A stretch of DNA of 64,000 nt. It comes from a virus. Below, in pieces: positions 35,505-55,987 of this stretch. The position numbers and the translations under genes are program-made. Position 1 is the stretch's first letter. Each line of letters starts with the position of its first letter. The stretch spans positions 32,001 to 96,000 of the IMG/VR virus record IMGVR_UViG_3300044712_000688, one strand, 5' to 3'. The notes beneath the pieces were generated by a model. That model made no database searches, was not told the DNA's origin, and was given only the letters and a program-made list of their open reading frames with translations.

Positions 35505-35584
35505 TGACTGCTTTGCTTAGAATTCTTAGAAACCTTTTCAAGGGAAAGAAGAATAAGCAAAAGCGTAGAGACTTCATCTACTGA
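35504..35584 (+). CDS. 26-aa basic micro-ORF ending KRRDFIY
   Basis: Fills the gap exactly with coupled start/stop before the carbamoyltransferase. Confidence 0.55.
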   Translation: MTALLRILRNLFKGKKNKQKRRDFIY

Positions 35585-37936: not shown

Positions 37937-39339
37937 TGGGTAAAAGCATTATGGAGCAGATTGCGCTCCTGCCCCCAGAAGAACAGCGTGCAGCATTGGC
38001 AGGTCTGGACCCAGAGCAATTGATGTGGGACTGGTCCGTATGGGGGCGTCCAGAACAGCAAGCTCCTGAAGGCGACTGGAATATCTGGCTTGTACTAGCA
38101 GGTCGTGGTTTCGGTAAGACTCGCCTTGCGTCCGAATGGGTGCGCGAAGAAGCGAAATACACCAACACCGGCCAGCGTCGTTTCGGTCTGGTTGCCCGTA
38201 CCGCAGCCGACGTGCGTGACGTTATCGTTGAAGGTGAGTCAGGAATCCTGAACGTCACTCCTCCGAGCGAGCGTCCACTCTACGAGCCTTCGAAACGTCG
38301 TCTAACTTGGCCTAACGGAAATACCGCCACACTCTTCACCGCGGATGAGCCTGACTCGCTCCGTGGTCCTCAGTTCACTCACGCATGGGGCGATGAGATC
38401 GCGGCTTGGCGTCAAACCCCAGACGCTGCAGGCATGACTGCGTTTGACAACTTACGCGTTGGTACTCGTCTTGGTGCACACCCAAAGATTCTGGTTACCA
38501 CTACCCCGAAGCGCACACCGCTTCTTTACAAACTTATCGAAGAGTCCATGAAGGGCGACATCGTAAAGATCACTCGCGGTTCAACAATGGACAACGCAGG
38601 TAACCTGTCTGGCGCGTATCTTGACACAATGCTTGGCGTTTACGAGGGAACATCTCTTGCCCGTCAGGAACTCTACGGTGAAATGCTTGAGGCCATGGAA
38701 GGCGCTCTTTGGACCGAGGAAATGATTGAAGCTGGTAGAGAAAGCTACTACCCGCTCTCTACACCACTAAGAGTGATTGGAGTTGATCCATCTGTTGCGG
38801 AAAATCCGAGAGATGAGTGCGGCATTGTTGTTTGCGCTTCTACTTCTGAGCATGATCTTTATAAGCGCCAAGCCTGGGTATTGGAAGACGCGTCAGTCCA
38901 CGGTTCCCCGGACGTTTGGGCCAATCAGGTTGTTAAAATGGCTCGCAAATGGGGTTGTCCTGTTGTTGCGGAAGTTAATCAGGGCGGTGCACTTGTACGC
39001 AACGCGATTAACACCATCGACCCAACTATTAAAGTCCTCGAAGTCCACTCTAAGCAAGGAAAAGCTCTCCGAGCAGAGCCAATTACACTAGCCTACGAGC
39101 AACAGCGTGTCCACCACGTCGGATATCTTGCTGATTTGGAGTCACAGATGATCTCTTGGGTGCCTGGAGAGGGTAAATCGCCTGACCGTGTTGACGCTTT
39201 GGTGCATGCAATGACTGCACTGCTCATTAAACCGCCTGCAGGCTTCTCTGGAGGCAAAATTCGCGCTAAATCGCTATCTGATCGCCGAATTCCGAATACT
39301 AGACCAGGAAATAACGGAAAAATCTTCCGAGTACGCTAA
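37936..39339 (+). CDS. terL: Terminase large subunit
   Basis: LAGRGFGKTR, SLRGPQF..AWGDE, TTTP, IGVDP, SPDRVDA. Confidence 0.95.
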   Translation: MGKSIMEQIALLPPEEQRAALAGLDPEQLMWDWSVWGRPEQQAPEGDWNIWLVLAGRGFGKTRLASEWVREEAKYTNTGQRRFGLVARTAADVRDVIVEGESGILNVTPPSERPLYEPSKRRLTWPNGNTATLFTADEPDSLRGPQFTHAWGDEIAAWRQTPDAAGMTAFDNLRVGTRLGAHPKILVTTTPKRTPLLYKLIEESMKGDIVKITRGSTMDNAGNLSGAYLDTMLGVYEGTSLARQELYGEMLEAMEGALWTEEMIEAGRESYYPLSTPLRVIGVDPSVAENPRDECGIVVCASTSEHDLYKRQAWVLEDASVHGSPDVWANQVVKMARKWGCPVVAEVNQGGALVRNAINTIDPTIKVLEVHSKQGKALRAEPITLAYEQQRVHHVGYLADLESQMISWVPGEGKSPDRVDALVHAMTALLIKPPAGFSGGKIRAKSLSDRRIPNTRPGNNGKIFRVR

Positions 39340-40000: not shown

Positions 40001-41761
40001 TTGGGAATTTTTAAAAAGAACAACAAAAATGCTCGCGGTAGAGCATTGGCTGCTGGGTTGCGTGCATCTACTCCCCGAAGTGCAACCCCTATCGCTCCAG
40101 GCATCTCTGTAGACTCGTTCGGTCTGGTATATGCAGAGCCTGCATCCTACAATGCACCTCGCCCTCTTACTGCTGCCGCTGCTCAGATCCGAATCGGCGA
40201 CAAAACTGAAGCGGAAATGTTTAAGAATCGTCGTCAGTCAGCTGCGACTGCATGGCAAGCCGAAGCATGGGAGTACTACGATGCAATTGGTGAAATTAAA
40301 TATGCGTTTAATCTTGTGGCGTCTGTCGTATCACGTATCCGCCTTTACGCTGCTGCTGTAGATGACCCATCGGAAGCTCCAGTACCAGTTGATCTCTCAA
40401 AGATTGTTGATCCTCAGCTGGCATCTGCTGCTCAGCGTGCGCTATCTCGTCTTGACTCAGCTTATGGTGGTCAGGCAGGTCTTCTAAAGGACGCAGCCCT
40501 AAACTTGCAGGTCACTGGTGAGTGCTACCTAGTTCAGGTTCCAGAGCGTATTGGTTCACAGATTCCAGAGTCGTGGGATATCCGTTCCGTAGACGAACTA
40601 CAGCTTGACTCACGTGGAAACTACACCATCAACCCGATTCGTGACGCTAGCGGTTCTTCTTCAGGTCAAGCTGGTAAGAATGCAATCCGTCTACCGTCCG
40701 ATGCGTTTATCGGACGTATCTGGAAAGCACACCCACGCTACTCAATGGAGTCTGACAGCTCGCTACGCGGACTTTTAGATCTCTGTGCGGAATTGTTGCT
40801 ACTTAACCGTACTTTCCGCGCTACGGCCCGTTCTCGCCTCAATGCGGGTGCTTTGTACCTGCCTGACGGTTTGTCTGTTGCAGCTAGCCCTGACCCAGAC
40901 TACCCATACGACGAAGATGGCGAGTACAACGAGCTCTACAACACCGAAGAAGCTGCCGACGACTTTGAGGATCAGCTCATTGACGCGATGACCACTCCGA
41001 TCAAGGACGAGGACTCTGCTTCTGCTGTTGTTCCACTGATCATTCGTGGTCCGGCTGAACTTGGCGACAAGATCAAGCAGTTCAAGTTCGAGCGTTCATT
41101 CGACGCATCGCTAGTTGCTCGTGCTGATCGTGTACTAGAGCGCATCATGCAGGGTCTAGACGTCCCTAAAGACGTTGTGACGGGACTTGCGAACGTTAAG
41201 TACTCCAACGCACTACAAATCGATGAAGCCCTCTACAAGGCGCACATCGAGCCTCTGATGCTACTTATTGCTGACGCACTAACTGTTGTGTACCTGCGTC
41301 CATACCTAATCGCCAACGGCTACGACAAAGATGAAGTAGACCGTATTCAGGTTTGGTATGACCCGAGCCAAGTTGCTACTCGTAATGACCGCGCAGCCGA
41401 TGCTGACTCTGGTTTCGAAAAGATGGCAGTGTCTTTCAACACTTGGCGTCGTGCGCATGGCTTCTCTGAGGCAGATGCACCGAGTCCAGAAGAGTTGGCG
41501 CTACGTCTTGTTGTCGAGAAGGGTATGATCACTCCAGAGTTGACTCAGTCAATGCTAGAAGCGGTTGCACCAGAGCTTAAGGACCTGATCAATGCAGCCA
41601 GCCAAGCAAACTCTGTTGCTCCGATGACACCAGAGATTGAAAACATTCTCGAAGGTGGTCCAGGCACCCCTACCCCAGAGCCATCGGCTGAAACCGCTCC
41701 AGCCGAAGCACCACCTACATCAGCAGCCCCAACTACAGAACCTGAGGTACCAACACCATGA
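40001..41761 (+). CDS. Portal protein
   Basis: Follows terL; WQ.EAWEYYD.IGE, SR.RL, G.IWK.HP, LYKAHIEP. Confidence 0.9.
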   Translation: MGIFKKNNKNARGRALAAGLRASTPRSATPIAPGISVDSFGLVYAEPASYNAPRPLTAAAAQIRIGDKTEAEMFKNRRQSAATAWQAEAWEYYDAIGEIKYAFNLVASVVSRIRLYAAAVDDPSEAPVPVDLSKIVDPQLASAAQRALSRLDSAYGGQAGLLKDAALNLQVTGECYLVQVPERIGSQIPESWDIRSVDELQLDSRGNYTINPIRDASGSSSGQAGKNAIRLPSDAFIGRIWKAHPRYSMESDSSLRGLLDLCAELLLLNRTFRATARSRLNAGALYLPDGLSVAASPDPDYPYDEDGEYNELYNTEEAADDFEDQLIDAMTTPIKDEDSASAVVPLIIRGPAELGDKIKQFKFERSFDASLVARADRVLERIMQGLDVPKDVVTGLANVKYSNALQIDEALYKAHIEPLMLLIADALTVVYLRPYLIANGYDKDEVDRIQVWYDPSQVATRNDRAADADSGFEKMAVSFNTWRRAHGFSEADAPSPEELALRLVVEKGMITPELTQSMLEAVAPELKDLINAASQANSVAPMTPEIENILEGGPGTPTPEPSAETAPAEAPPTSAAPTTEPEVPTP

Positions 41762-42213
41762 CCTACGAAAAAAACGGTCTAGCAAAACATTTAGCACACT
41801 TGCTAGCCGATGTAGTTACTCTTGGATTCCTGACTCAGGGATATCACTGGAATGTAAAGGGACTCAACTTCTCTCAGTTCCATGAGTTTTTTGCAGAGAT
41901 TTATGGAGATGTTGATAGCGCGATTGATCCGCTTGCTGAGAACATCCGCAAACTCGGGTATGACTCTCCTTACTTGCTCACTGACTTTGCTGAGCTGACT
42001 TGTATTGTCCGCCAAGAGCGCGAACTCGGTGACGCGGTTTCAATGGTAGAGTCTCTGGCTCGTGTAAACCAGTCAGTGCTTATGTGCTACGAACAGGCCT
42101 TCACCATGGCCAGTGCTTGCAATGAGCAGGGAATTGCTGATTTTGTTGCTGGACGTATTGACATGCACCAGAAGTGGCAGTGGCAGTTGAAATCAACTCT
42201 AGGGGTTCAGTAA
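41758..42213 (+). CDS. dps: Dps/ferritin-like protein
   Basis: GYHWNVKG..F...HEFF.EIY....D.LAE.IRKLG...H.KW.WQL. Confidence 0.9.
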   Translation: MTYEKNGLAKHLAHLLADVVTLGFLTQGYHWNVKGLNFSQFHEFFAEIYGDVDSAIDPLAENIRKLGYDSPYLLTDFAELTCIVRQERELGDAVSMVESLARVNQSVLMCYEQAFTMASACNEQGIADFVAGRIDMHQKWQWQLKSTLGVQ

Positions 42214-42896
42214 TGTCATACGTTGACGACATCTTCAAAAAGAATAATGGCGAGTACGTATTAGTTCCCGAAGAGGAAGAGCTAGCTAATGCTCTTCAGT
42301 TGATTGCCAACAAGTACGGCAAGTTCAACGATGACAACACCGGAATCTGGGCAGGATACACTCCTGCATCAGAGAACGAAGAGAACGCAGCCATTGGCGT
42401 CAAGTGTGGTAACTGCGTTTTCTTTAATGCACCTAACGGCTGCTCAATCATTGCAGCTGAAGTTGAAGATGGCGGGCTATGCCGTTTCGCAGTTCTGCCA
42501 GATGGTGCAGTGACCGCGACTGCCGGGTCTAAGCCAGCTCCCAAGAAAGACCGAATCAAGGGCTCTGACAAGAACAAAAAGGGATCGGCTGCCGAAGGCA
42601 AGTCTGTGAACTTCACCGAAGAGATTATTACAGCTCTAAAGAACAAACTAGAAACTCACAACAAGAAGGCACCAGACGGTAGGAAAGCTACTATGGCGGC
42701 CCTCAAGGCTGTGTATCGTCGTGGTGCAGGCGCATTCTCTACCTCACACCGACCAGACCAAAACCGCAACTCGTGGGCCATGGCTCGTGTAAATGCATAT
42801 TTGCACTTACTACGCTCTGGTTCTCCTAAAAATTCAAAATATACAACTGACAACGACCTGCTTCCAAAAGCACATCCGAAGTCAACTAGAAAATAA
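42213..42896 (+). CDS. Two-domain head-module protein (Cys cluster CGNCVFF...C...C plus LKAVYRRGAGAFSTSHRP...WAMARVNA domain)
   Basis: ATG 42213 coupled to dps stop; both motifs recur in phage head modules. Confidence 0.75.
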   Translation: MSYVDDIFKKNNGEYVLVPEEEELANALQLIANKYGKFNDDNTGIWAGYTPASENEENAAIGVKCGNCVFFNAPNGCSIIAAEVEDGGLCRFAVLPDGAVTATAGSKPAPKKDRIKGSDKNKKGSAAEGKSVNFTEEIITALKNKLETHNKKAPDGRKATMAALKAVYRRGAGAFSTSHRPDQNRNSWAMARVNAYLHLLRSGSPKNSKYTTDNDLLPKAHPKSTRK

Positions 42897-42968: not shown

Positions 42969-45900
42969 GTGAGCTCAGCATTCACTACTCTCATCAGCAA
43001 GATTGAAAACTACTACGCTGATCACGACTACACTACCGAGGATGCCGAGTATCTTTCTCGACTAGCCATCGTTGAGTACGCTAAGGAAAAGAACGCGCTG
43101 GTTGCTTCAGCTCGTCAGGTTCCAGAGACTTCGATTGACAACATCATCGAGACAGCAATCCACTTCAACCTAGATGCTGACCCGAGCGAGTGGATGCTAT
43201 TTGCAGCTAACGCTGTTGACAACGTCCTCAACTACTCCCACCACGGAATCATCGCCTCTGGCCTTGGCGAATACACCGACTTCCTACCTCTAGGACACCC
43301 TTCACGTACTAACCGCGGTGCTATGACCGCATCTGCTCTATCTCAGTTGACTGCCCTCTGGGTGGCCGGAGATCCTCGCATTGCTTCGGAGCAGGCTCGT
43401 CTTGACGTTTACAGTGCATATGCGACCAAGCCTGGGTCAGTAGAAGCCGACTACGCTAGCGCAAAGCTAGGTGCTTTAGTTGCTGCTGGCTATGTCCCAG
43501 AAGACGTAGTACTTCCTGTTACTGCAGCTTTCAAGATGAGCTTCGCTATGCGTTCTGCAATGGCAAAGGCGCTGGCCGCTGTTCGTCGTCGTCACCGTGA
43601 CGGTCGATTCGCGGAAGAGTTCGGACGTCTACGTGGGTTCTTCAAGCGCGGAGACGGAAGCATCTTCTCCGAGGATGGCCGTATTGTTGGTGCGCCAGCT
43701 GGAACTAATAACTTCCAGATTGAGATTAAAGACAGTCCAGAAATTCCTGATGGCATCTACACCATTGACGCTGCAAAGACTGCGCCAGTAAAAGCTATTC
43801 TTTCTAAGCGTGCGCTTTCTAAGGTAAAGGGTCTTAAGGCTAACCGCTCCATCACAAACCCGAGCAAGGCAGATATTGCTTCTGCAATTCCTCTAGAAGA
43901 CTTCCTAAAGACCCGTGCAGATGCTCCAGAGGGCTGGACCAAAAACGAAGACGGTTCTTTCACCTCTAAGACTGGTCAGACCGTAAAGGCAATTACCACC
44001 CAGCCTAAGGGCGACTATATGGTTGAGGGCGCAGGCGAGAGCGGTGCCATTGACCCTAACACCCCGATGTTTGAGATTCGCGATAAGAATGGCGAGCTTC
44101 TAGGTGTTGGTCAGAACTGGGCAGGTCTTAACAAGATTGCTATGACCTATGACGCCCTAAGTGGCGAAGGTAGCAACACTCCAGACGAGCCAGGGCTAGA
44201 CCAGAAGGCTGGTGGCTCTAATCTTGACTCGCTAGTTAAGGAGCTAAAAGACGCTTCGTCTAAGTGGATGGATGAACAGCGCTTCAGCCCAGACGAGTAT
44301 GACGAGGCCACGGATGCAATGCCAGACCCTGCCGTTACTGCTGACTTTATTCTCCAAGCTGAGAAGTCGGGGGACACCTCGGAACTCAAAGGGCTACTTG
44401 ATGCTTATGAGGAAAGGCCATATGCTGAAGTCCTTAAGAAGGCAATTGAGCGTATTGATGGTGAAAAGGGTCTAGACCAGAAGCCGGGAGAAGGCAAGAA
44501 CTGGTATGACAACACCATTGACTTTGACCACCTATCTGATCCAGCTAACTGGAAGGGCTTTAAGGAAGGTACCCATGAGTACGTCTCTCCAGATGGAAAG
44601 CTAGAGCTAACTTGGGAGCCAGACGGTGAGCCAGACATGGGCGATGGCGCTACAGATCTGTCTGGAATTAGTGTTACCTATGATGGTCAGCCAATTGGCT
44701 CTTACTTGGCAAGTTACCGTGATTTAGAAGACGGCGACATCGCAGATGGCCTAAAGGATCTTTTCAAGAAGGAAAGCTGGTTCAGCCCAGACAACCTTGT
44801 TAAGTTCGGCCAGTATGGCAGTGCAGAATACAACAGCCCTGACGGTGGTGGCGTATACGTTGAACCTAAGGGCTCTAAGTATGAAGTTACTAAGTCGATT
44901 CCTCAGGGTATGATTGACGAAAACGTCGAACACTCCTATGAAAAAGTCGAGACCTACAACACCAAGGAAGAGGCCCACAAAGCGGCCGAAGACTTTGCAA
45001 GGTTGCTTGAGGACCCTTCGAAGAAGTATGACCTTCTATACGGGGACTGGAGTGACAGTGACGGTGGCTTTGATCAAGCTCCGGGCGAACCTACAAAACT
45101 AAGCGCAGCTGGTAAGAAGATTGCCAAGGACCTAGGTGACCACAAGTTCTTCCTCGAAGAGGATGCAGACGGAAACTTTACTGGAGGAGAATCAACTTAC
45201 ACTTCTCCAGATGGTCGTGTAGAAGTTAAGTACCGTGACGGCTCTTGGTTTGATGACGAGAAGGGCTACGTTGCTTGGGACGAGATGCAGGTCTCTGTAG
45301 ACGGCAAGCCAGTTGACAGCGTACTTCGCAACAAGCGAGAGTCTTGGCCTGACTTTCTTGACCGTGTTGCTGCTATGGCAGAGAACGGTCTAGAGAACCC
45401 TAACTATGCAGAAGAGAAGAAGGCTAAGCGCGAAGCCGACCGCAAGGCTCAGGAAGACTTCTATAACTCTCCAGAGCAGGTAGAAAAGCGTGCCCGCGCT
45501 AAGTGGGAAAAGGAGCAGGAAGAAGCTGCTCAGGCTCAGGCTCGTGATGCAGCTGACAAAGAAGGTCTACTTAAGAAGGTAGATGATCTAGCAAACAAGA
45601 TCTTCAATGGTGAAAGCGACGACAGCATCTGGGTTGGCGACGAGGACGAAGAAGGCTTCCGCAACTGGGGCGTCTATAACGAAGATGGCGAAGAGGTTGC
45701 GACCGGAAACGCTGGACCAAACTGGGACGCTACTGATATTGCTTCCGAAATTCGTGATGGCGTTAACTCGTACCTAGACAAGAAGATGGAAGAAGAGGCT
45801 GACTTCCAGTCGGGCTTTGACCAGAAGGCTGGCGAAGACAAGGCGGAGGCACCAGCTAAGCCACTATCTGAAAAGCAGATGGAACCAGCTACTGACAAGC

Positions 45901-48392
45901 AGTACGCACTTCTTGAGGAGCTTAACTCAGAGCGTGATGGTATTGACCCAGTCACTCAGAAGGCTATTGACGATGCACTAGCCAACAAGAACCTGACAAA
46001 GGCTCAGATGGCGTCTCTGTTTGGCGACCTTACTAAGAAGCCTTTCAAGCCAAACGTAGACCCTACCAAGCCAACCGAGCGCCAGATCAACTCGCTTCAG
46101 GGCTACCTAACCACCAAAGAACTAACTCCTGACGAGATGAACGACATTCTTGCTCAGCTTGATGCGGGACTAGATCGCGACTCAATCGAAAAGATTACTG
46201 CCAAGCTACGTCGTCGTCCAGACCGTCAGCCGACTGAAGGATTTGACCAAGCTGCCGGAATTGACAGCGAGTTCGATGACGAATACGACTCGGCTCACGC
46301 TGATGTAGAGTCTGCAATTGACCAAGCTCTGGAGGACTACCAGAACTCGCTGGAGGCTGACGGACTATCTGAGGCAGAGATTTCTGACAAGATGGACGAG
46401 GCAAACCAGATTGCCGAGCGTCTGCGTGATTCGTCCAATGTTGCTGACGCACAGGGAGCCGAGCGTGACATTGCTAACGACACCACTGGTGGAATCTTTG
46501 ACAAGATTGTTGAAGACATTCGCACTAACGCAGAGGCTCTAGACTCACGTAAACAGAAGAACCTTGCTGACGCTGATCAGGCGAAGGCAGACGAGGTTCA
46601 GGCTGCGATTGACGGAGACGACTCTAGCTTCCTCGAAGACATCGTAAATGACCCGAGCTACAGCGAGTATCAGTCTCAGATTGAGGATGCTCTCGCTGAC
46701 ATCAACGCACGTAAGGGCGAAGAAGAGCCTGGATTTGATCAGGCTTCTGGTAAGACCATTGCTGATGCATGGGAAGGTCTAGACCAAGATACCAAGGACA
46801 GCGTAGTCGAGTCAATGAGCGACTACCTACTTAAGTTACGTCAAACTAACCCAGACGAGTTCTACGACATGGTTTATGACGTAGCTGTAGATCACCCAGA
46901 TGGCAAGCGTGTGATGCAAAAGCCTCAGAACTATGCCGAGGACTTCATTGACTTCTATGCTAATGAAGACCCAGAGCTGATTGCAGACATGCTTGAAAAT
47001 GCTGGAGTTGATCTTGACGGCTTTGACCAAGCTCCAGGCAAGACTCTATCTCCAAAGATGATGGAGCCAGCTACTGACGCTCAGTACAACTACTTGCAGA
47101 GTCTTTTCGACAGCAAGACTGGAATTGATGACGAGACTGCTCAGGCTGTTAAGGAAGCTCTTGACTCAAAGAACTTGACTAAGGCTCAGGCTGGTGGATT
47201 CATCGGTAAGCTCCGTGACCTTGGTGACAAGGAGAACATGGGCCAGTACGGCAAGCCTTCTCAGAAGATGATTGACTCTGTAAAGCGTGACGTCTACGCT
47301 AAGGGCCTATCTGACGCAGACCGCGAAGAAATTCTTAAGGGTCTAGAGGACAAGTCAAAGGGCGATGTCTCATTTATTATCAGCATGCTGAAAGAAATGG
47401 ATGACGTCGAGGGTGGTATTCCAAAGTACATTGACAGCCTAGTTCAGAGTGGCGACGTAGATGCATTGAAGCGTCTACGTGCTGACGATCGCTATGGTCG
47501 TTGGTCAAGCCAGATGGATGACGCTCTAGCAAAGATGGACTCTGGTAATCAGGGTTTTGACCAAGCTCCCGGGGAGCGCTCTAGCAGCGACCGAGGTCAG
47601 ATGAAGTCAGATCTATCTTCTCTAGCTGAAGAGGTAGAGAACAGCAATGAAATCGGCTACGCATTTCTAAACAAGAACTTCGTTGACGGTCTTGATCTGA
47701 ATGACCCTGACGACGCTTACTACCTACACGCTGAGTTGATGGATGCATACAAAGCAATGCGTCCTAACTCAGAAGAAGGTAAGGCATTGGAAGCTCGTCT
47801 TAAGAAGGCTGCTGATGACCTGCTCAACAGCATCGAGTCAGACCTAGGCCCTATTGAAGCAGCTAAGCGCGACCCAGAAGACATGGGAAGCAGTTTTGAA
47901 TTTGATAGTGCTGTAGATGACCTACCTGACTTCTTTGACTACTACTTCCCGACTGATGCATCATCGGATATGAGAAATGATCCAGATGGTGGTTCAGTTG
48001 GTGATGTTCGAGGTGGTGGCTGGGAAGCTTCTGTACGCTTCAACGAGGAAACTCAGAAGTGGGAAGCCGACATGACTTCGCCAGGATTTGCTTCCGAGAA
48101 CTACAGCGAGTCTTTCGATGACCAAGATGAAGCAGCCGACTGGGTAGCAAATGAGCTTGATCGCCAGAACACTTCAACACGTAATCGTGACACTAATATT
48201 CTTGCTGAAGATGGTCTTGCCGGACTCATCGAGGAGTATGGAGATGATCCAGCAGAACTAGCTGGCGTTCTAGAAGGTGTCATTGGATGGCTTCGAGGTA
48301 CTAACCGTGGACAAGCACAGAAGATTGCAAGTACTCTAGATGACTATGTTACTCGCCTACGCGAGCAGCTGGCCAAAAACCCAAAAGCCTAG
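42969..48392 (+). CDS. Giant acidic multi-module head-associated (polyvalent-like) protein
   Basis: About 1,807 aa from GTG 42969 (AGGAAGG upstream); eight G(F/L)DQ motifs; duplicated EPATDxQ...LTKAQ modules. Confidence 0.85.
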   Translation: MSSAFTTLISKIENYYADHDYTTEDAEYLSRLAIVEYAKEKNALVASARQVPETSIDNIIETAIHFNLDADPSEWMLFAANAVDNVLNYSHHGIIASGLGEYTDFLPLGHPSRTNRGAMTASALSQLTALWVAGDPRIASEQARLDVYSAYATKPGSVEADYASAKLGALVAAGYVPEDVVLPVTAAFKMSFAMRSAMAKALAAVRRRHRDGRFAEEFGRLRGFFKRGDGSIFSEDGRIVGAPAGTNNFQIEIKDSPEIPDGIYTIDAAKTAPVKAILSKRALSKVKGLKANRSITNPSKADIASAIPLEDFLKTRADAPEGWTKNEDGSFTSKTGQTVKAITTQPKGDYMVEGAGESGAIDPNTPMFEIRDKNGELLGVGQNWAGLNKIAMTYDALSGEGSNTPDEPGLDQKAGGSNLDSLVKELKDASSKWMDEQRFSPDEYDEATDAMPDPAVTADFILQAEKSGDTSELKGLLDAYEERPYAEVLKKAIERIDGEKGLDQKPGEGKNWYDNTIDFDHLSDPANWKGFKEGTHEYVSPDGKLELTWEPDGEPDMGDGATDLSGISVTYDGQPIGSYLASYRDLEDGDIADGLKDLFKKESWFSPDNLVKFGQYGSAEYNSPDGGGVYVEPKGSKYEVTKSIPQGMIDENVEHSYEKVETYNTKEEAHKAAEDFARLLEDPSKKYDLLYGDWSDSDGGFDQAPGEPTKLSAAGKKIAKDLGDHKFFLEEDADGNFTGGESTYTSPDGRVEVKYRDGSWFDDEKGYVAWDEMQVSVDGKPVDSVLRNKRESWPDFLDRVAAMAENGLENPNYAEEKKAKREADRKAQEDFYNSPEQVEKRARAKWEKEQEEAAQAQARDAADKEGLLKKVDDLANKIFNGESDDSIWVGDEDEEGFRNWGVYNEDGEEVATGNAGPNWDATDIASEIRDGVNSYLDKKMEEEADFQSGFDQKAGEDKAEAPAKPLSEKQMEPATDKQYALLEELNSERDGIDPVTQKAIDDALANKNLTKAQMASLFGDLTKKPFKPNVDPTKPTERQINSLQGYLTTKELTPDEMNDILAQLDAGLDRDSIEKITAKLRRRPDRQPTEGFDQAAGIDSEFDDEYDSAHADVESAIDQALEDYQNSLEADGLSEAEISDKMDEANQIAERLRDSSNVADAQGAERDIANDTTGGIFDKIVEDIRTNAEALDSRKQKNLADADQAKADEVQAAIDGDDSSFLEDIVNDPSYSEYQSQIEDALADINARKGEEEPGFDQASGKTIADAWEGLDQDTKDSVVESMSDYLLKLRQTNPDEFYDMVYDVAVDHPDGKRVMQKPQNYAEDFIDFYANEDPELIADMLENAGVDLDGFDQAPGKTLSPKMMEPATDAQYNYLQSLFDSKTGIDDETAQAVKEALDSKNLTKAQAGGFIGKLRDLGDKENMGQYGKPSQKMIDSVKRDVYAKGLSDADREEILKGLEDKSKGDVSFIISMLKEMDDVEGGIPKYIDSLVQSGDVDALKRLRADDRYGRWSSQMDDALAKMDSGNQGFDQAPGERSSSDRGQMKSDLSSLAEEVENSNEIGYAFLNKNFVDGLDLNDPDDAYYLHAELMDAYKAMRPNSEEGKALEARLKKAADDLLNSIESDLGPIEAAKRDPEDMGSSFEFDSAVDDLPDFFDYYFPTDASSDMRNDPDGGSVGDVRGGGWEASVRFNEETQKWEADMTSPGFASENYSESFDDQDEAADWVANELDRQNTSTRNRDTNILAEDGLAGLIEEYGDDPAELAGVLEGVIGWLRGTNRGQAQKIASTLDDYVTRLREQLAKNPKA

Positions 48393-48409
48393 CCCCCAAT
48401 GAGGGGGCT
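48380..48409 (+). other. Predicted programmed -1 ribosomal frameshift signal
   Basis: C_CCA_AAA heptamer 48380-86, 4-nt spacer, hairpin agccccc-aatga-gggggct 48391-48409; -1 frame open from 48344 to 50692. Confidence 0.8.
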
Positions 48410-50692
48410 GAGCCTGGATTAGATCAGGACGCTCCAGATTTAGACCGAATCAAGAGCATCCTAGATAAGTACCGTACTAAGCCAACTGCCACAGAGACTG
48501 TACGTCCATCTGTAGCCGAAGGCGAGCCGGGATCTAGAACTAATCCACTCGAACTTACTCAGGAGCAACTTGATGAAAAGCTTGCCTCTGTAACCGAGAC
48601 TAACAAGGCTGCGGCTTCCAGTGTTTTGTCTAGCGTACTAGACAAACTGCGCAATCCTAGAAGCATCAAAGATTGGGTACAAAAGTGGAAGAGAGACGGT
48701 AACCGACCTCTCCCAGTCAACCCTGCAAGTGAGACCCACTACACCGGCCCCAACCTATTGGTCTTGGAAAACGCAGCTTCAGAAAACGGATTCAGCGACC
48801 CTAGATGGATGAGTGCGTCTCAGGTTGCTCAGGCTGGAGGAACAATCCCAGCTGGAACCAAGGGTACTCAGATTCTTGTACCTAGCTTCTTTGTAACCAC
48901 CCGTGACGGCAAGGTTGTCGAGCACTTTGAGTTTAGAAAAGTCACTGTTTTTAATGGTGATCAGATTCAAGGAATCGCTCCATACAACGCTGACGAAAAC
49001 AAGTCCTACACCGCAAAAGAGGCTGTAGATATCATCCTTGACAGAATGCGTGAAGCAGCCGAGCTTCGAGGTGTCAAGGCTCCTGAAATGTTTGGTATTC
49101 AGCTAGATGAAAACCAGAATCCACGCTGGATGCCTAACTATCGCGGAGAAGTTGATAGGATCCGACTACCACTCCGAGCAAACTTTGATAGCGATGAGTC
49201 TTGGTTTAATGCCATTACCCACGAACTAATTCACAGCACGGGTAGAACCAACCGACTTAACCGAGAAGAAGTTAAGAAGGCACTAGATGGAAACAGCAAT
49301 GCCTACGCAGAAGAAGAGCTAACTGCCGAGCTAGGCTCCATGCTTCTATCAAAGATGTTTGGTCTTGACGCTGACCAAGATAACTCAATCAGCTACTTGC
49401 TCACTCACATTAGAAACCTAGATGGCATTGACGCGGATAAGGCCGTGACTGATGCCATGACTAGGGCACAGCTAGCTGCCGACTACCTGCTTGGTAACGA
49501 TGTTCTTCCTCAGTGGAACCCGCTGAAGACTAAGGTTGCCCCGACCCCACAGTCGGTAAGAATGGCGTCTACTACTCCAGAAGACTCGAGCCTGAACCCA
49601 GACACTAATCCTGATTCAGTTGATGCTCCTCTAGTAGGACTTGACCAAGCCCCGGGCAAGAAGCCTTTCAACCGCGCTAAGTCCGTGTCTGACAGCAAGG
49701 ATGCTAAAGAGCGAGTTCTATCTGGACTACTGGAAAAGATTAAAGAAGGTAAGGCTCCTTGGCGTAAGCCATTTAAGGATGACGCTAACTATGCTGGTGC
49801 ATTCGTTCCGCGTAACCCAGCATCGAAGCACATTTACAGCGGTATTAACTCGATTGTTCTTAAGCTGTACCAGCAGTTGTCTGGGTATGACGATCCTCGC
49901 TGGATGACCTACAACCAAGCCACAGAATTAGGTGGTCAGGTTCGTAAGGGCGAGAAAGGTGTACAAATCCTTGTTCCTTATAAGAGGGTCAAGAAAGAGA
50001 AGGATTCCTCAACTGGAGAAGAGAAGGTAACTGGTAGTTACGTAACATTTGGTGTAAAGACCGTGTTCAATGTTGAGCAGATTGATGGTCTAAACCTGCC
50101 TACCGTCAAGGCCGAGGCTGGAGAGCCTAAGACCCCGCTCGAGGCACAAGACTTCATTCTTGAGCGCTACCAAAAGTCAATGGAGGCCAAGGGTCTAAAG
50201 GCTCCTGAAATTTCATATACATATGTAGGTCAGTACGGTAGCCACTCATCTTCTCCAAACTGGGACCCAAGTTTCGACATGATTACCCTCCCAACCAAGG
50301 AGCAGTTCAATAGCCCAGAGGATATGTTTGACACCATTGCCCATGAGCTTGCTCACTCGACCGGACACAGGGATCGCCTTGACCGCACCGAGCTAACCAA
50401 GAACTATGGAACAAGCAATGCAGCCCGAGGTGAGGAAGAGCTTATTGCAGAAATCTCTGCAGCAATCCTAGCCAGCATGTTCGGTGTTAACAGCGACTTT
50501 GACAATACCGCGGCCTATGTAAAGAGTTGGCTAAAAGCACTACAGGATAACCCTGATATGGTTATGAAAGCCTCTTCTGAAGCTCAGAAGGTAGTAGACT
50601 ATTTGCTAGGTATGGATCTGGGAGACTGGAGCCCTATCGAGGGTTACCGAGCATCAAACAAATCTAAATCAGATGGAGACTCAGATGAGTAA
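48386..50692 (+). CDS. Tandem ArdC-like modules (ssDNA-binding N-domain plus zincin metallopeptidase) x2, probably expressed as -1 frameshift extension
   Basis: P.NP.S...Y.G.N...L, DPRWM...Q....GG....G.KG..I, VFN..QI.G; THELIHSTG and AHELAHSTG; EEL.AE; ORF-track TTG 48626 has no RBS. Confidence 0.85.
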   Translation, partial: SLAPNEGAEPGLDQDAPDLDRIKSILDKYRTKPTATETVRPSVAEGEPGSRTNPLELTQEQLDEKLASVTETNKAAASSVLSSVLDKLRNPRSIKDWVQKWKRDGNRPLPVNPASETHYTGPNLLVLENAASENGFSDPRWMSASQVAQAGGTIPAGTKGTQILVPSFFVTTRDGKVVEHFEFRKVTVFNGDQIQGIAPYNADENKSYTAKEAVDIILDRMREAAELRGVKAPEMFGIQLDENQNPRWMPNYRGEVDRIRLPLRANFDSDESWFNAITHELIHSTGRTNRLNREEVKKALDGNSNAYAEEELTAELGSMLLSKMFGLDADQDNSISYLLTHIRNLDGIDADKAVTDAMTRAQLAADYLLGNDVLPQWNPLKTKVAPTPQSVRMASTTPEDSSLNPDTNPDSVDAPLVGLDQAPGKKPFNRAKSVSDSKDAKERVLSGLLEKIKEGKAPWRKPFKDDANYAGAFVPRNPASKHIYSGINSIVLKLYQQLSGYDDPRWMTYNQATELGGQVRKGEKGVQILVPYKRVKKEKDSSTGEEKVTGSYVTFGVKTVFNVEQIDGLNLPTVKAEAGEPKTPLEAQDFILERYQKSMEAKGLKAPEISYTYVGQYGSHSSSPNWDPSFDMITLPTKEQFNSPEDMFDTIAHELAHSTGHRDRLDRTELTKNYGTSNAARGEEELIAEISAAILASMFGVNSDFDNTAAYVKSWLKALQDNPDMVMKASSEAQKVVDYLLGMDLGDWSPIEGYRASNKSKSDGDSDE

Positions 50693-50913: not shown

Positions 50914-53028
50914 ATGAACCACCTAATCGGCCGCTCTGGCGAACTAGCATTCTATGCTAACAATACACACGGTGTAGTGATCAACACTGCCGTAGGAGCT
51001 GTCGTCGCTAGCGGTGTAGCCCTCGACATTTTCGCAGAAAACAAATGGGAAACCTCGGGTACCCCCCTTACTCCGGCTGAAAAACTGCTTGCCGATAAGG
51101 TTCTAGCCAACCTAGAAGAAGAAGCCATCGTTGCTTCTGCAGACAGAATGTACACCATTCCTAAGTCTGTAGAGGCAGAGGCAAAGAAAGCTTTAGAGTG
51201 GCGTAAGGAAGAAGGCCGAGGAGGGACTCCTGTTGGCCTAAACACTGCTCGCACGCTTGCTAAGGGCGGTCAGATCGGTATCCGCAAGATTCGCCACATT
51301 GCTAAGTACTTCCCTCGTCACGAAGTTGATAAGAAGGGTAAAGGCTGGAAGCCTGGCCAAGATAACTTCCCATCTAACGGTCGTATCGCATGGGCACTTT
51401 GGGGTGGAGACGCCGCTTGGCGTTGGGCACGTGCAATCGTTGAGCGCGAAGATAAGAAAGAGAAGTCAGTCACTGCTGGTGGTGGCTACACTGTCTCTAA
51501 CTATGTAGATCAGGTCAACTACCCTAAGCAGAACGAAGAGCTAAACCCGTTCAAGTACGCTCATGAGCTTGATGAAAACTACGGCCCAGAATTCTTGGCT
51601 CGAGTTTGCCTAGATGGTTCTGGTATTGACCGACTTTACATGATAGACATAGACGGCTCGGTCTACGTCTGGGACGACGCTTGCTGGGACAACCTAGGTC
51701 ACGTTGATGGTGACATCTGGACATACGACCGTATGTTGGATGATGTCTATGATCTAGAGGAAAAGTCTCACGTAATTATTGACCCTCAGTCTGCTCTTAT
51801 GATTGCAGCTCGTATGGCTGTAGACCCATACTGCAAGACTTCTGTCTTTGATCTAGATGCTGATGAAGCTTCTTTAATGGAGGCTGGTATTGGTGGCGAA
51901 GACTGGGAGTTTATTGACCAAGTAATTACTGCCGCAGCCCCTACCAACCAAGACGGCAACTACACTCCAGAAGAGCGTTCAGCAAACGCTGGTAACCAGC
52001 CTCGAGACGCTATGGGCCAGTTTGCTAAGGTAGGCCAGAAGGTAGCTATCGGTGGAGACGCTGCTAGAGGTTCTGGCACAATCCGCGACATTGATGGTGC
52101 TACTGGTATTGTTACCGTTGACCTTGCTGATGGACGAACTGTAAAGGTTGGTTCTAAGTACCTAGTCCCTGCAGAAAAGGCAAGTAGTCGTCCAAACTCT
52201 TTGCGTGTTGATGATGCAAATAAAGCTCCTATGGACTTCTCTGGGATCATTGGCGAGCCTCGTACTCCTCAGAACAGCAAGAAGGCCCACCTTCCGGGAA
52301 CTCTACCAAAGCTAGATGTCAATGAATTTATCAACAACTACGCTTCTTGGGTGGAGAAGGAACGCTACAAGCCAAGGAGCGCAGCTGACAAGGCTGCGGT
52401 CAAGAAGCGTTGGCCAAATGCCAAGTTCACAGATGCATCTATCATTGCCTCTGCCGAAGAGAAGATTCTCACTCCTTCAACTTCTGACGTAACCCCTAGG
52501 TACCTAGCTATCGTTGCTCAGGAAGACCCTGAAGCAATGGTTGATCTAGTAGCAATTATTCCTAAGACCGCTACTTCCACTTCTCCAATTGCCTACAAGC
52601 GTGAGGGAGATAAGTGGGTTCAGGATGACCAGACCCTAGCAGACCTTCGTTCAGCAACTAAGCCTCCAGTAGTAGAGCTAGATAAAGAATCCCTAAAGGA
52701 TGTTCTATCTCAGATGTCTGAGAACAAGCCTACAGAAGAGACTGCTCCAGAAGCGGTTATGGCTAGCTTGCTTACTGTCCTCGATGCTTTTGTGGCAGCA
52801 GGTGGAGCTGATAAGAACCGTGGCAACGCAGAAAAACTTCGTCGCTACTGGGTATATGGAGAAGGTGCTGCCAAGATCCGCTGGGGCCAGCCTGGAGACT
52901 GGAAGCGTTGTGTACGCTACCTAGCTAAGCACCTAGGCCCACGTGCAAAGGGATACTGCCAACTTCGTCACAAGGATGCCCTTGGCTACTACACCGCAAC
53001 CCATGCGAAAAGAGACCGTAATGGCTAA
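50914..53028 (+). CDS. Multi-domain head-associated protein
   Basis: EAKKALEWR...GRIAWALWGGD domain; QPRD..GQF; C-terminal RGNAEKLRRYW...AAKIRWG.PGD..RC domain. Confidence 0.8.
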   Translation: MNHLIGRSGELAFYANNTHGVVINTAVGAVVASGVALDIFAENKWETSGTPLTPAEKLLADKVLANLEEEAIVASADRMYTIPKSVEAEAKKALEWRKEEGRGGTPVGLNTARTLAKGGQIGIRKIRHIAKYFPRHEVDKKGKGWKPGQDNFPSNGRIAWALWGGDAAWRWARAIVEREDKKEKSVTAGGGYTVSNYVDQVNYPKQNEELNPFKYAHELDENYGPEFLARVCLDGSGIDRLYMIDIDGSVYVWDDACWDNLGHVDGDIWTYDRMLDDVYDLEEKSHVIIDPQSALMIAARMAVDPYCKTSVFDLDADEASLMEAGIGGEDWEFIDQVITAAAPTNQDGNYTPEERSANAGNQPRDAMGQFAKVGQKVAIGGDAARGSGTIRDIDGATGIVTVDLADGRTVKVGSKYLVPAEKASSRPNSLRVDDANKAPMDFSGIIGEPRTPQNSKKAHLPGTLPKLDVNEFINNYASWVEKERYKPRSAADKAAVKKRWPNAKFTDASIIASAEEKILTPSTSDVTPRYLAIVAQEDPEAMVDLVAIIPKTATSTSPIAYKREGDKWVQDDQTLADLRSATKPPVVELDKESLKDVLSQMSENKPTEETAPEAVMASLLTVLDAFVAAGGADKNRGNAEKLRRYWVYGEGAAKIRWGQPGDWKRCVRYLAKHLGPRAKGYCQLRHKDALGYYTATHAKRDRNG

Positions 53029-55861
53029 CGAACAAGAATTCCTTATGGAAGAGATTTTGACCAAGAATTACGGTGTTCCTACGGAGATCACCGATGAAGA
53101 TCTATTGATGCCTATCGAAGACATCATGTTTGAAGATGATGACATCTACGATGACTCTTGGGAGCCAGACGAGGAAACTTGCCGTCAGCTAGCCGAGCTA
53201 GCGGATTGCGATGACGAAGAATATGCGTCCCTTATTGCTGCTGGTGGCCTAGACCGTAACCGTGGTAACGCAGAGGAGCTTCGCCAGTACTGGACTCGCG
53301 GTAAGGGCGCTGCCAAGATTCGCTGGGGTACCCCTGGCGATTGGACTCGTTGCGTTCGTCAGCTTTCAAAGTACATGGGCCCACGCGCTAAGGGCTATTG
53401 CCAGCTACGCCACAAGGACGCGACTGGTATCTACACTGGTAGCCGATTCAACCCGGGCCGTCGTAATGAAACCTCTAGCCTATATGCAAGCGAAGCTGAG
53501 TTTACCCAGTCGGTTATCGCTCAGGCAGAACTTACTGCTAGAGCGAACCACGCTAGAGAGCGTTTCGGTCTAGTTGCAAGTGCTGGTATGCAACACGGTG
53601 CAAAGTTCAACATTCCTCTACTGATCCCAGAAGACTTGGAGTCAGGAGATGGCCGTAAGTTTGTGAAGGACTCTCTATCAGTTCGAGAGCTTCCACTTCC
53701 ACTTCTATGGCAGATCAAGACCGGCGACGGTCACATGGGGTCTGTGGTGGTTGGACGTATTGATTACGTAGAAAGAACCGAAAACGGTATTGGAAATGCC
53801 TATGGTGTTTTTGATACAGGAGCATATGGTCAAGAAGCAGAGCGTCTAGTACGTAACGGATTTATCCGTGGTGTTTCTGCAGATCTTGACCAGTTCGAAG
53901 CAGAAGAAGATAAGACTGAAAATGCTGAGGACACCGAAGACGTAGGTAAGAAGAAGTTAACCATAAATCACGCCCGTGTAATGGCTGCTACAATTGTAGC
54001 TAAGCCTGCATTCCAAGAATGCACTATCTCTATTGAAGAAAAACCAGCGGGAGACCAGGAGGATGAAGTGATTCCAGTTGACGGAATATATGAAGAATCC
54101 GTCGAACAAGAATTCTCTGGCACATCGCTAGTTGCTTCAGGATTCATTGACGGCGAGATTCCTATGACACCACCAGCAGAGTGGTTCAAGGATCCTAAGC
54201 TAACTAAGCCAACCCCAATCACCGTTGACCCTTCTGGTCGTATCTACGGTCACATTGCAGCTTGGCACGTAAACCACATTGGCATGCCTCGCTCTACCCG
54301 CCCACCTCGCTCAAAGAGCAAGTACGCATACTTCCACACTGGTGTAGTCCGCTGTGCTGACGGAACTGACATGCCAGTGGGACAGTTAACTCTTGCTGGT
54401 GGACACGCACCTCTAACTGCTAACGCTGCTTCTGCAGCTAAGCACTACGACGACACCGCTTCTGCGATTGCAGATGTTCACATGGGTGAAGACGAGTATG
54501 GAATCTGGTGTGCTGGCTCGGTACGTCCAGACGCAACCGAGATGCAGATTCGCGCACTTCGCGCTTCTGCTCCTTCTGGCGACTGGCGTCCAATTAATGG
54601 CTCGCTCGAGCTTGTTGCAGTTTGTCAGGTAAACGTTCCAGGCTTCCCGATTGCTCGCGCAATGGTTGCTTCAGGTAAGGTTATGGCTCTAGTTGCAGCT
54701 GGTGCAAGCATGATGGCAATCATGAAGAGTCAGCACGTAGCAACCCTATCTGAGCGTGCATACAACCTAGCTGAACTTTCAGCTAGCGCCCCAGACCTAC
54801 GTTCTCGTGTAAAGTCTGCAAAGAAGGCTGTAAAGAAGCAGGCTCTAGTTGCTGCTGCTGCTAAGGCAGAAGAACTAAAGACCCGTGCTCTAGTTGCTGC
54901 TGCCGTTGCCGAGCTAGCTAAGTTCTCTGACGAAGAGAGAATGAAGCTTGCTGACAAGGGTCAGGCTCTACCAGATGGTTCGTTCCCAGTGCGCAACGAA
55001 CAGGATCTCCGTAATGCTATCCAAGCATATGGACGTGCAAAGCGAGAGAACCGAGTAGCTGTCCGCAAGCACATTATCAAGCGAGCTAAGGCTCTAGGTA
55101 AGGCATACCTGATTCCAGATGAGTGGAAGTCAGCTGGTTCTACCGAGGCCGCGACAATCGTTGCTTCGATGCGTTCTCGTATCGCAGAATTTGCAGAAGC
55201 CCCGATCAAGGAGATTTCTGACGCAGACCTAAAGAAGCTGAAGGATGTAAAGGCCGAAGCTGACAAGCAGACTGCAGAAGAGATCAAGCTCGCTGAGGAT
55301 ATTCGTACTGGTAAGACTACTGCCAAGGAAGTCTATGACAAAGAAGGTCGTAGCAAGTACACCCCAAAAACCCAACCCCGTGACGCTAAAGGTAAGTACC
55401 GCAAGGTTCTTGCTCGACTAAAGCAGAACCTAGGTGTGGCGGGGCTTCAGAAGGCTTTGGAAAAGGTAGAAAAGGCAGAAAACCTAGAGTTTGCTGGCGA
55501 CTACGTAAACTCAGCCAAGGCTAGTAGCGAGCTACTAGGAATGATTGATCGTCTAGATACTAAGGCCCTAAACCCTAAGTCTCTAGAAAACGTCCGCTCA
55601 ACAGCGGCCGAACTAGGCAAGACAATTGCCAACCTTCCATTGCCATTCGGCAAGGAAGCTCAGAAAGTTAGATTTAGCGATCTACCTGCCGGACTAAAGA
55701 CACTCATCGATGGGATGATTTCTCGAGTCGAAGCAAAGATCGGTAAAGAGGACGCAGATATTGCAACCGCAAATCTGAAGTCCTTCATGTCTGGTGCAGA
55801 TGTCTATTCTCAGGCTGAAATTCAGTCAGAGATGAACACCCTGCTCCGACTCCTTACCTAA
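53021..55861 (+). CDS. Capsid maturation protease-containing multidomain protein
   Basis: SGDGRKF...PLPLLWQ...GH..SVVVGRI, GVSADLD, G.IYGHIAAW, SGDWR; ALPDGSFP.RN..DL.NAI domain; start 53021 coupled to upstream stop. Confidence 0.8.
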   Translation: MANEQEFLMEEILTKNYGVPTEITDEDLLMPIEDIMFEDDDIYDDSWEPDEETCRQLAELADCDDEEYASLIAAGGLDRNRGNAEELRQYWTRGKGAAKIRWGTPGDWTRCVRQLSKYMGPRAKGYCQLRHKDATGIYTGSRFNPGRRNETSSLYASEAEFTQSVIAQAELTARANHARERFGLVASAGMQHGAKFNIPLLIPEDLESGDGRKFVKDSLSVRELPLPLLWQIKTGDGHMGSVVVGRIDYVERTENGIGNAYGVFDTGAYGQEAERLVRNGFIRGVSADLDQFEAEEDKTENAEDTEDVGKKKLTINHARVMAATIVAKPAFQECTISIEEKPAGDQEDEVIPVDGIYEESVEQEFSGTSLVASGFIDGEIPMTPPAEWFKDPKLTKPTPITVDPSGRIYGHIAAWHVNHIGMPRSTRPPRSKSKYAYFHTGVVRCADGTDMPVGQLTLAGGHAPLTANAASAAKHYDDTASAIADVHMGEDEYGIWCAGSVRPDATEMQIRALRASAPSGDWRPINGSLELVAVCQVNVPGFPIARAMVASGKVMALVAAGASMMAIMKSQHVATLSERAYNLAELSASAPDLRSRVKSAKKAVKKQALVAAAAKAEELKTRALVAAAVAELAKFSDEERMKLADKGQALPDGSFPVRNEQDLRNAIQAYGRAKRENRVAVRKHIIKRAKALGKAYLIPDEWKSAGSTEAATIVASMRSRIAEFAEAPIKEISDADLKKLKDVKAEADKQTAEEIKLAEDIRTGKTTAKEVYDKEGRSKYTPKTQPRDAKGKYRKVLARLKQNLGVAGLQKALEKVEKAENLEFAGDYVNSAKASSELLGMIDRLDTKALNPKSLENVRSTAAELGKTIANLPLPFGKEAQKVRFSDLPAGLKTLIDGMISRVEAKIGKEDADIATANLKSFMSGADVYSQAEIQSEMNTLLRLLT

Positions 55862-55882: not shown

Positions 55883-55937
55883 TAGGTGGAGCGCCTCGCA
55901 CATTCCGTGCTGAGTCCCTCAGCCTTGACTGTTCACC
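55883..55937 (+). promoter_or_regulatory. Structured 5' leader of capsid transcript (multi-stem RNA)
   Basis: GGTACAAT -10 at 55869; ggtgga/ttcacc closing stem enclosing gcac/gtgc and gctgag/ctcagc hairpins. Confidence 0.45.
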
Positions 55938-55987
55938 ATGAATGGGATCTTCCTATTCATAAAACCAATACTGGCCTAGGAGGTACA

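Follow-up and report, generated by a model that had tools for sequence, protein, structure and literature searches.

In a 64,000-nucleotide stretch of viral DNA, hereafter the window (positions 32,001 to 96,000 of IMG/VR virus record IMGVR_UViG_3300044712_000688, a 136,298-bp record with direct terminal repeats), we found that a giant head-module gene, ORF1, ends in what is very probably a site of programmed −1 ribosomal frameshifting like those of Lactobacillus phage A2. Slippage on its terminal heptamer, C_CCA_AAA, would join the ORF1 polyprotein to two ArdC-like anti-restriction modules encoded in the −1 frame. Sequence comparison shows the frameshift signal, the start-less beginning of the −1 frame, the coding character of that frame and the conservation of the arrangement across a diverged family of uncultured lake phages.

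Two reading frames meet at a slippery heptamer

We first describe the site itself; the features given for this locus all lie on the + strand of the window. ORF1, the short 0-frame product, occupies 42969–48392 in the list of open reading frames (ORFs) and translates to 1807 amino acids (199 kDa), with a composition that makes it very acidic (calculated isoelectric point 4.35). Database gene call P0003 likewise starts it at GTG 42969 and calls it alone. The gene closes with AAC CCA AAA GCC TAG, in which the heptamer C_CCA_AAA lies in the 0 frame at 48380–48386 and is followed by an Ala codon, GCC, and the stop (together 48387–48392, the stop at 48390–48392), a pair that recurs as GCN plus TAG or TAA in every family member. 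Read off the window sequence, both the 0-frame end and the in-frame heptamer fall where an initial annotation of this DNA had placed them. In-frame heptamers of the form X_XXY_YYZ (Y being A or T) number two in the 1807 codons of ORF1, C_CCA_AAA included; the other, G_GGT_TTT at 47552–47558, falls within the codon string of a GFDQ linker.

From 48344 the −1 frame stays open up to 50692, and its translation confirms that it runs uninterrupted through a 233-bp apparent gap, as had been proposed. Read after a slip, the extension covers 48386–50692 (768 codons, 85 kDa) and starts K-SLAPNEGAEPGLDQDAPDLDRIK..., giving a fusion of 1806 + 768 = 2574 amino acids, the same length that the initial annotation had estimated. 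The predicted junction peptide of this fusion is ...NPK-SLAPNEGAEPGLDQ, and trypsin would release SLAPNEGAEPGLDQDAPDLDR, following the K of ...NPK, whereas the 0-frame product ends ...NPKA. The first ATG, GTG or TTG in the −1 frame is TTG 48626, which leaves 80 preceding codons start-less, and the 18 nt upstream of it (GCTGCGGCTTCCAGTGTT) hold no Shine-Dalgarno-like run, in agreement with the earlier observation that this codon has no ribosome-binding site (RBS). A scan of the gap predicted no promoter or terminator, and no Rfam family was found at the frameshift site. Stop-codon readthrough or TAG reassignment is excluded by a second 0-frame TAG nine codons later. The sole other AAAAGCNTAR in the whole 136-kb genome, at 35559–35568, has neither heptamer nor hairpin and was set aside as a chance match.

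In Lactobacillus phage A2, the −1 shift is placed at a C_CCA_AAA heptamer, and the genome sequence has such a heptamer at two gene ends. In NC_004112, the major head gene orf5 ends ACC CCA AAA GCG TAA and is followed by an 87-codon −1 extension, while the major tail gene orf10 ends GCC CCA AAA GCG TAG, followed by an 82-codon −1 extension; both extensions have immunoglobulin (Ig)-like character. The initial annotation's mention of CCCAAAA in A2 capsid genes therefore holds at the sequence level. Published titles report −1 ribosomal frameshifting in the A2 head and tail genes (refs 145 and 146 in PMC5009743), and the series C_CCA_AAA, Ala codon, stop is a known working cassette type from this phage.

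A GC hairpin follows the heptamer at fixed spacing

Folding and conservation place a putative stimulatory hairpin at 48390–48410, with a core of GCCCCC paired to GGGGGC (48392–48408) around a 5-nt loop. The element A-GCCCCC/AAUGA/GGGGGC-U at 48391–48409 forms 7 bp and begins four nucleotides after the heptamer, exactly as the initial annotation had described it, and pairing can extend to 48387–48413 through one U·G pair and two further G-C pairs. The hairpin has a minimum free energy of −18.5 kcal/mol (z = −3.46), and none of 200 shuffled sequences folded as well. The pattern GCCCCC-N5-GGGGGC occurs once in the 64-kb window against an expectation of 0.01. We also considered the hairpin as an intrinsic terminator and rejected this reading, as a T-run is absent and the terminator scan gives no call.

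Together, these elements suggest the following mechanism. When ribosomes translating ORF1 arrive at C_CCA_AAA, tRNA-Pro would occupy the P site and tRNA-Lys the A site; with CCA and AAA so placed, the stem would, by established geometry, begin at the mRNA entry channel. There, the GC hairpin, with its first G-C pair 5 nt downstream, would stall the ribosomes, and a fraction of them would slip back by one base (CCA to CCC, AAA to AAA) before reading on through the −1-frame codons. Most ribosomes would instead terminate two codons later and release the ORF1 polyprotein, with the slipped fraction yielding the long fusion that bears two ArdC-N/zincin modules.

The cassette is conserved across a family of related viruses

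Protein-guided and pattern-guided scans of IMG/VR and the JGI metagenomes yielded fourteen further contigs, so that the cassette is found in fifteen contigs in all. Nine of these, the window among them, carry C_CCA_AAA-GCN-TAG followed by CCCCC-N5-GGGGG (the others being L002, L003, L004, L006, L012, L013, L017 and L018); three carry C_CCA_AAA-GCG-TAA followed by CCCCC-GAAAA-GGGGG (L027, L030 and L033); and three carry A_AAA_AAA-GCG-TAA followed by CCCCC..GGGGG (L021, L028 and L034). In every case a long 0-frame ORF ends one codon past the heptamer, and the −1 frame extends from at least 432 codons, where a contig end cuts it, to more than 1365. The initial annotation had named conservation of heptamer and hairpin in related phages as a check on the prediction; identity of the relatives' ORF1 to that of the window ranges from 96% down to 37%, and both elements are kept throughout. 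The only substitute for C_CCA_AAA across the family is another slippery heptamer, A_AAA_AAA, and in an alignment of the closer five sequences the cassette is identical, with the region 5′ of the heptamer diverging freely. In the DNA pattern scan the three bases preceding AAAA were left unconstrained; they are CCC or AAA in all family members and GGG in one further long ORF, in L035, of unknown family, so that every long-ORF hit is homopolymeric here, whereas the four hits not located in a long ORF read AGG, CAA, AAT and ACT.

The protein record gives the same picture. Among homologues of the ORF1 C-terminal domain, 25 of 25 retrieved from a search of 5.8 billion proteins end in -PKA or -KKA, as do five more from an exhaustive HMMER search over 1.8 billion cluster representatives. 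These 30 sampled tail homologues span 100% to about 31% identity, their flanks diverging to about 31–44%, and all are too short to represent annotated fusions. Other searches were negative: the junction had no near or distant match in the phage collection at the nucleotide level, tblastn with the extension against the same collection found distant stand-alone ArdC genes only, and searches of IMG/VR using P0026 and the L021 protein gave no matches.

Conservation extends to the hairpin. Its first G-C pair is fixed in position, 5 nt past the heptamer, in 12 distinct sequences, and the five C-G pairs are invariant among these, although three of the bases are third positions of −1-frame codons; the conserved stem bases lie where the 0 frame has already ended. 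The loop, on the other hand, varies across the 12 sequences, altering the encoded residues (N-E, E-E, S-E, E-A and K-K). Where the last stop-codon base pairs, all TAG members have G-C, and two of the five distinct TAA sequences (L021 and L028) have A-U; of these two the pair count scores only L028 as a double change, the 3′ arm of L021 being one column off in the ungapped alignment. We regard this pattern as persuasive for selection on the RNA, but not as covariation proof.

A related arrangement turned up outside the family. In L035 (4216–5889, − strand), an unrelated ORF of at least 558 amino acids, which matched neither Pfam nor PHROGs, closes with G_GGA_AAA GCG TAA; a CCCCC..GGGGG hairpin and a −1 frame of 81 codons (3977–4219, − strand) come next. 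The same cassette type thus seems to be used in another gene family.

The −1 frame is coding but lacks a start

We next explored how the −1 frame might be entered. Its first start codon lies 80 codons in for both the window and L002, at +42 in L003, +41 in L004 and +142 in L006, where it is already inside the ArdC-N domain, and none of these five starts is preceded by a Shine-Dalgarno-like run. TTG 48626 of the window is CTT or CTA in the relatives. An independent start or RBS had been named as an observation that would speak against a frameshift; the −1 frame of the relatives contains no conserved start or RBS.

Even so, the start-less gap behaves as protein-coding sequence. Differences within it fall 157/63/313 by codon position of the −1 frame, which indicates that the gap is coding in that frame; by codon, 216 differences are synonymous vs 165 non-synonymous, and the gap holds conserved peptide blocks together with a linker motif. 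The point of entry is narrowest in L006: a stop closes the −1 frame immediately upstream of the heptamer, and the 0 frame terminates 10 nt past the first base of the heptamer, which leaves a stretch of 13 nt, heptamer included, in which the frames can switch.

The extension carries ArdC modules and variable cargo

Pfam searches of the extension identified two ArdC-N and two MPTase-PolyVal domains (E = 6 × 10−48 and 1 × 10−47), in line with the two ArdC-like modules originally annotated. Module 1 (48626–49636) pairs ArdC-N with a zincin domain whose motif, HELIH, is at 49220–49234, and module 2 (49649–50692) has the same composition, with HELAH at 50342–50356; both HExxH motifs are intact. Module 2 also matches the solved ArdC structures 6I89 and 6SNA (E = 2.4 × 10−41, residues 453–754 of P0002).

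Two ArdC-N/MPTase units are found in the extensions of the window, L012, L013, L021, L028 and L034. Other relatives carry further cargo: an ADP-ribosyltransferase (ART) module in L027 and L030 (PF03496, E = 1 × 10−10 to 5 × 10−12) and an additional module of about 370 amino acids, with no family assignment, in L018. The L021 extension also gives a ParB_N match that is weak (E = 9 × 10−4) and below Pfam's cut-off. L027 (2673–5243, − strand) and L030 (2–4096, − strand) are identical over the cassette and the first 850 or so codons, after which the −1 frame of L027 stops past the ADP-ribosyltransferase (857 codons) and that of L030 continues through ArdC-N/MPTase (more than 1365 codons); the cargo block thus differs between near-identical phages. 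Across the cassette, identity jumps from 63–78% upstream to about 90% downstream. This abrupt change in divergence, along with the different cargo that follows the same cassette, suggests that the cassette may also act as a recombination joint for swapping counter-defence modules.

Two more distant relatives, L015 and L023 (39–41% identity), have one continuous ORF, of 1430 or 1317 amino acids, with no heptamer. Each comprises the N-terminal domain, middle modules, an ORF1-like C-terminal domain and one ArdC-N/MPTase unit, and this in-frame fusion indicates that ArdC joined to this carrier is a selected architecture.

Repeated linkers tie the two frames together

ORF1 is divided into modules by nine G[LF]DQ linkers, at 44193, 44469, 45066, 45813, 46239, 46731, 46776, 47019 and 47553 (44193–47564 overall). 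A tenth, GLDQ at 48416–48427, lies 10 residues past the junction within the apparent gap, and an eleventh, GLDQ-APG at 49637–49648, lies between the two ArdC modules. The initial annotation was right that the gap contains a GLDQ motif; its count of this motif as the ninth requires correction, since ORF1 itself holds nine. In a six-frame scan the eleven motifs were confined to this locus; the genes for the portal, the protease-like protein and the capsid protein had none. Four sites are unchanged in all 14 homologues compared, their flanks being variable, and a counterpart of the tenth linker is equally distant from the junction in L012, L013, L018, L027 and L028.

The linker changes by clade, and does so in both frames. 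Where the window clade has G[LF]DQ (nine in the 0 frame, two in the −1 frame), L027 and L030 have GF[ASDG]Q-xPG (11 and 6), and L021 has DLGQD (4 and 1). This clade-by-clade matching ties the two ORFs into one system, and the co-variation fits what cleavage sites of a co-evolving protease would show. We give about even chances to the proposal that the linkers are proteolytic cleavage sites that release the modules. Candidate proteases are the extension's zincin and the S78-like head protease encoded downstream; the capsid protein lacks the motif, which tips the balance slightly towards the zincin and away from the head maturation protease. The link between zincin and linker is not clean, however, since L034 has zincins and no obvious repeated motif. 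A stronger version, that the ArdC zincin, present only in the frameshift product, is the only protease able to cut G[LF]DQ-type linkers, strikes us as doubtful.

ORF1 is a candidate carrier within the head module

The part of ORF1 that defines the family is a conserved N-terminal domain of about 410 amino acids (42969–44201), the most conserved block in two alignments and a candidate capsid-targeting anchor. Only this domain of ORF1 has a counterpart in the 3289-amino-acid protein encoded by 'Actinomycetia phage DSL-LC01', a lake phage assembled from metagenome data (32% identity, E = 1 × 10−27). Compared with Pfam and PHROGs, whole and module by module, ORF1 belonged to no significant family, the only hints being weak matches to DUF3072 (E = 0.002) and AP2 (E = 0.007). 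Two of its modules, 45825–46250 and 47031–47564, are paralogous, sharing LS-x-K-x-MEPATD-x-QY just after the linker, and the second is the source of the DUF3072 match. The giant ORF of L012 is interrupted by an in-frame TGA (11668–11670), before and after which GLDQ linkers are read in one and the same frame; this stop could reflect a misassembly, a pseudogene or a further recoding event.

ORF1 sits among genes for the head. Upstream are the large terminase (37936–39339), the portal (40001–41761), a ferritin/Dps-like gene (41758–42213; PF00210, E = 5 × 10−16) and a DUF5824 gene (42174–42896). Downstream are a gene for a 704-amino-acid protein (50914–53028), a gene for a 972-amino-acid protein (52943–55861) with head-maturation-protease PHROG matches and a weak match to Peptidase_S78 (E = 0.009), the major capsid protein (55886–58009) and the major tail protein (59205–60353). 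The order portal, giant gene, protease-like gene and major capsid gene is common to the window and DSL-LC01. As listed, the 704- and 972-amino-acid ORFs overlap by 86 nt and have a phrog_6439 domain in common; at their place DSL-LC01 carries two consecutive 'capsid maturation protease' annotations. The DSL-LC01 head module also includes an annotated 'high potential iron-sulfur protein', located after the giant gene. Further upstream in the window, a Nol-like carbamoyltransferase gene (35587–37026; phrog_1601, E = 5 × 10−101) is separated from the large terminase by a 305-amino-acid ORF (37019–37936). The capsid protein is 69% identical to that of DSL-LC01 and 47–57% identical to the capsids of large Microbacterium, Arthrobacter and Gordonia phages, identities from which the source is most likely a freshwater actinobacterial phage.

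The DSL-LC01 homologue contains a mid-gene, in-frame C_CCA_AAA of its own (OQ999401, about record position 59438; L041:18630–18665), followed 6 nt on by AGCCCC-UUCG-GGGGCU. At this site the 0 frame stays open, whereas the −1 frame meets a TGA immediately, so that a slip would truncate the product in a reverse, dnaX-like arrangement. This heptamer and hairpin could be functional or a relic.

On balance we favour, with some reserve, the view that the short and long products serve as a cargo polyprotein that the N-terminal domain anchors and targets to the capsid. If so, the ArdC modules, and the ADP-ribosyltransferase and ParB-like modules of relatives, would accompany the DNA into the host and weaken restriction there. 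The frameshift would exist because the cargo needs a link to the anchor for packaging, yet at lower copy than ORF1, and would thereby set cargo dosage by a Gag/Gag-Pol logic. The initial annotation further proposed that the virion may carry a short and a long form at a fixed ratio, and that the ArdC cargo may be linked to restriction avoidance in the early block.

Alternative explanations

A real frameshift whose products stay out of the virion would cast both forms of ORF1 as, for example, a cytoplasmic or scaffold-like assembly factor, the zincin being active in the producing cell only. ORF1 matches no known head protein family and its N-terminal domain has no fold match, as such a role would allow, but its gene lies between the portal and the prohead protease and major capsid genes in both the window and DSL-LC01. 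ArdC-N/MPTase, ADP-ribosyltransferase and ParB are moreover hub domains of polyvalent proteins, for which packaging and injection are predicted (PMC5512222), and an anti-restriction protein is useful only if present at DNA entry. We therefore consider this alternative rather unlikely.

We next asked whether the locus could be two independent genes, with ArdC translated alone from a non-canonical or far-downstream start, or by termination and reinitiation, and with the hairpin acting as an RNA-processing or stability element. Gene callers do split the locus and list ORF1 alone, TTG 48626 lies right at the start of the first ArdC-N domain, and stand-alone ArdC genes are common in other phages. 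However, that TTG is neither conserved nor preceded by an RBS, the first start codon of L006 would cut into ArdC-N, and purifying selection acts on the 80 start-less codons, which contain a linker motif also present in ORF1. Nor would two genes account for a -PKA/-KKA ending encoded family-wide by slippery heptamers only, or for the in-frame ArdC fusion of L015 and L023. Taken together, these observations make separate genes quite improbable.

Less probable again is transcriptional slippage, in which RNA polymerase would add one A within the A-run and so produce a −1-frame mRNA. A runs are known slippage sites (reviewed in PMC5009743), and the three A_AAA_AAA members carry a run of seven, for which slippage is conceivable. 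In 12 of the 15 contigs, however, including the window, the heptamer offers only A4, far below the usual run length, and a hairpin at fixed spacing and an in-frame heptamer that obeys tRNA re-pairing are features of a ribosomal shift.

An assembly or sequencing indel, whereby the true gene would be one continuous ORF or a pseudogene, has a negligible chance of being correct: short homopolymer runs (A5, C3, A4 and C5) do adjoin the site, but fifteen contigs from many datasets and three collections, 37–96% identical, share the frame arrangement with TAG or TAA exactly one codon past the heptamer, each frame is under purifying selection on its own side of the site, close relatives show no continuous ORF of the kind that would have betrayed an error, the stop, heptamer and hairpin are kept in all fourteen further contigs, and the number and diversity of these independent assemblies exclude sequencing error.

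Several observations nonetheless weigh against a packaged product of programmed frameshifting. All genomes compared are metagenome assemblies. The hairpin core never varies, so that its conservation comes without covariation within the core, and among close relatives the entire downstream block is highly conserved, which weakens the argument from hairpin conservation there. The spacer of 4–5 nt is at the short end of the usual range, the downstream structure of −1 frameshift sites generally lying about 5–9 nt after the heptamer, and no upstream Shine-Dalgarno-like stimulator is conserved in the family cassettes compared. As for packaging, the proposed virion location derives from the place of the gene between the portal and the protease and capsid genes and from analogy with polyvalent proteins. 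The fold of the N-terminal domain was not recognised: AlphaFold modelled it with a predicted local distance difference test (pLDDT) of 63 and a predicted template-modelling score (pTM) of 0.36, Foldseek gave nothing at E ≤ 0.001 among viral models, and a protein atlas yielded no usable match.

Discussion

Frameshifting in phage virion genes is known from tail chaperones and from small decoration domains on capsid and tail proteins. The closest parallel is with gp5A/gp5B and gp10A/gp10B of phage A2, where an identical cassette at the end of a virion-module gene, with downstream structure and an open −1 frame, gives a short and a C-terminally extended product (the extended one here being predicted). 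A2, however, adds an Ig-like decoration domain of 82–87 residues to a major structural protein, whereas the family described here would add 768 to more than 1365 residues of enzyme or effector modules to a giant non-capsid polyprotein, and its hairpin is a compact G/C stem right after the stop.

In its logic the arrangement recalls retroviral Gag/Gag-Pol, in which a −1 shift at the end of a packaged polyprotein gene appends enzymes, a protease included, in sub-stoichiometric amounts, linkage to the packaging-competent part brings them into the particle, and cleavage-type linkers are repeated. This is analogy without homology: the protease here is a zincin rather than an aspartic protease, and the packaging, cleavage and ratio that we propose would be its counterparts of established Gag-Pol features.

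The encoded domains point to polyvalent proteins, described by Iyer et al. 2017 (PMC5512222) as large multidomain proteins from virion gene contexts, with MPTase as a hub domain often paired with ArdC-N and also with ART and ParB domains, and predicted to be packaged and injected. The fusion, if made, would join two ArdC-N and two MPTase domains, to which relatives add ART and, weakly, ParB_N. Those proteins are described as single ORFs, with no mention of frameshifting in PMC5512222; here, a second frame encodes the effector domains, no domain was recognised in the 0-frame part and a clade-specific motif separates the modules. We found no link between polyvalent proteins and frameshifting in the literature searched, an incomplete library.

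Each module resembles ArdC of IncW plasmids (6I89, 6SNA) in combining an ArdC-N domain that binds single-stranded DNA with an HExxH zincin domain. Members of the ArdC anti-restriction family shield incoming DNA against type I restriction, a function that the present modules may share. The plasmid protein, however, is free, about 300 amino acids long and exported by conjugation, whereas two diverged tandem copies here end a 2574-residue predicted frameshift product in a phage head module. T4 Alt and internal proteins (IPs) and P1 DarA and DdrB (PMC5512222) offer a further precedent, as targeted, head-packed, processed and injected anti-defence or host-takeover proteins, a fate that we infer for the present products. 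Their genes are separate, each with its own targeting sequence, whereas many modules here would share one anchor and the dosage of some would be set by recoding.

Frameshifting itself is thus a known mechanism; in the papers searched, we found no report that a family of phages uses it to attach a large anti-defence block to a giant head polyprotein. Gene callers annotate such loci as two genes, a 'hypothetical protein' and an 'anti-restriction protein' that lacks a start, and X_XXA_AAA-GCN-stop-CCCCC..GGGGG provides a simple rule by which they can be found and joined. The packaging, dosing and processing of polyvalent proteins likewise become testable, through the junction peptide and eleven predicted cleavage sites. 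If the interpretation is correct, a known signal controls the dosage of an anti-defence enzyme block tied to a head polyprotein. Should the zincin alone cut the linkers, one recoding event would set both the protease-to-substrate and the anti-defence cargo-to-carrier ratios, which would amount to a Gag-Pol-like economy in a tailed phage, its cargo block swapped at a conserved cassette.

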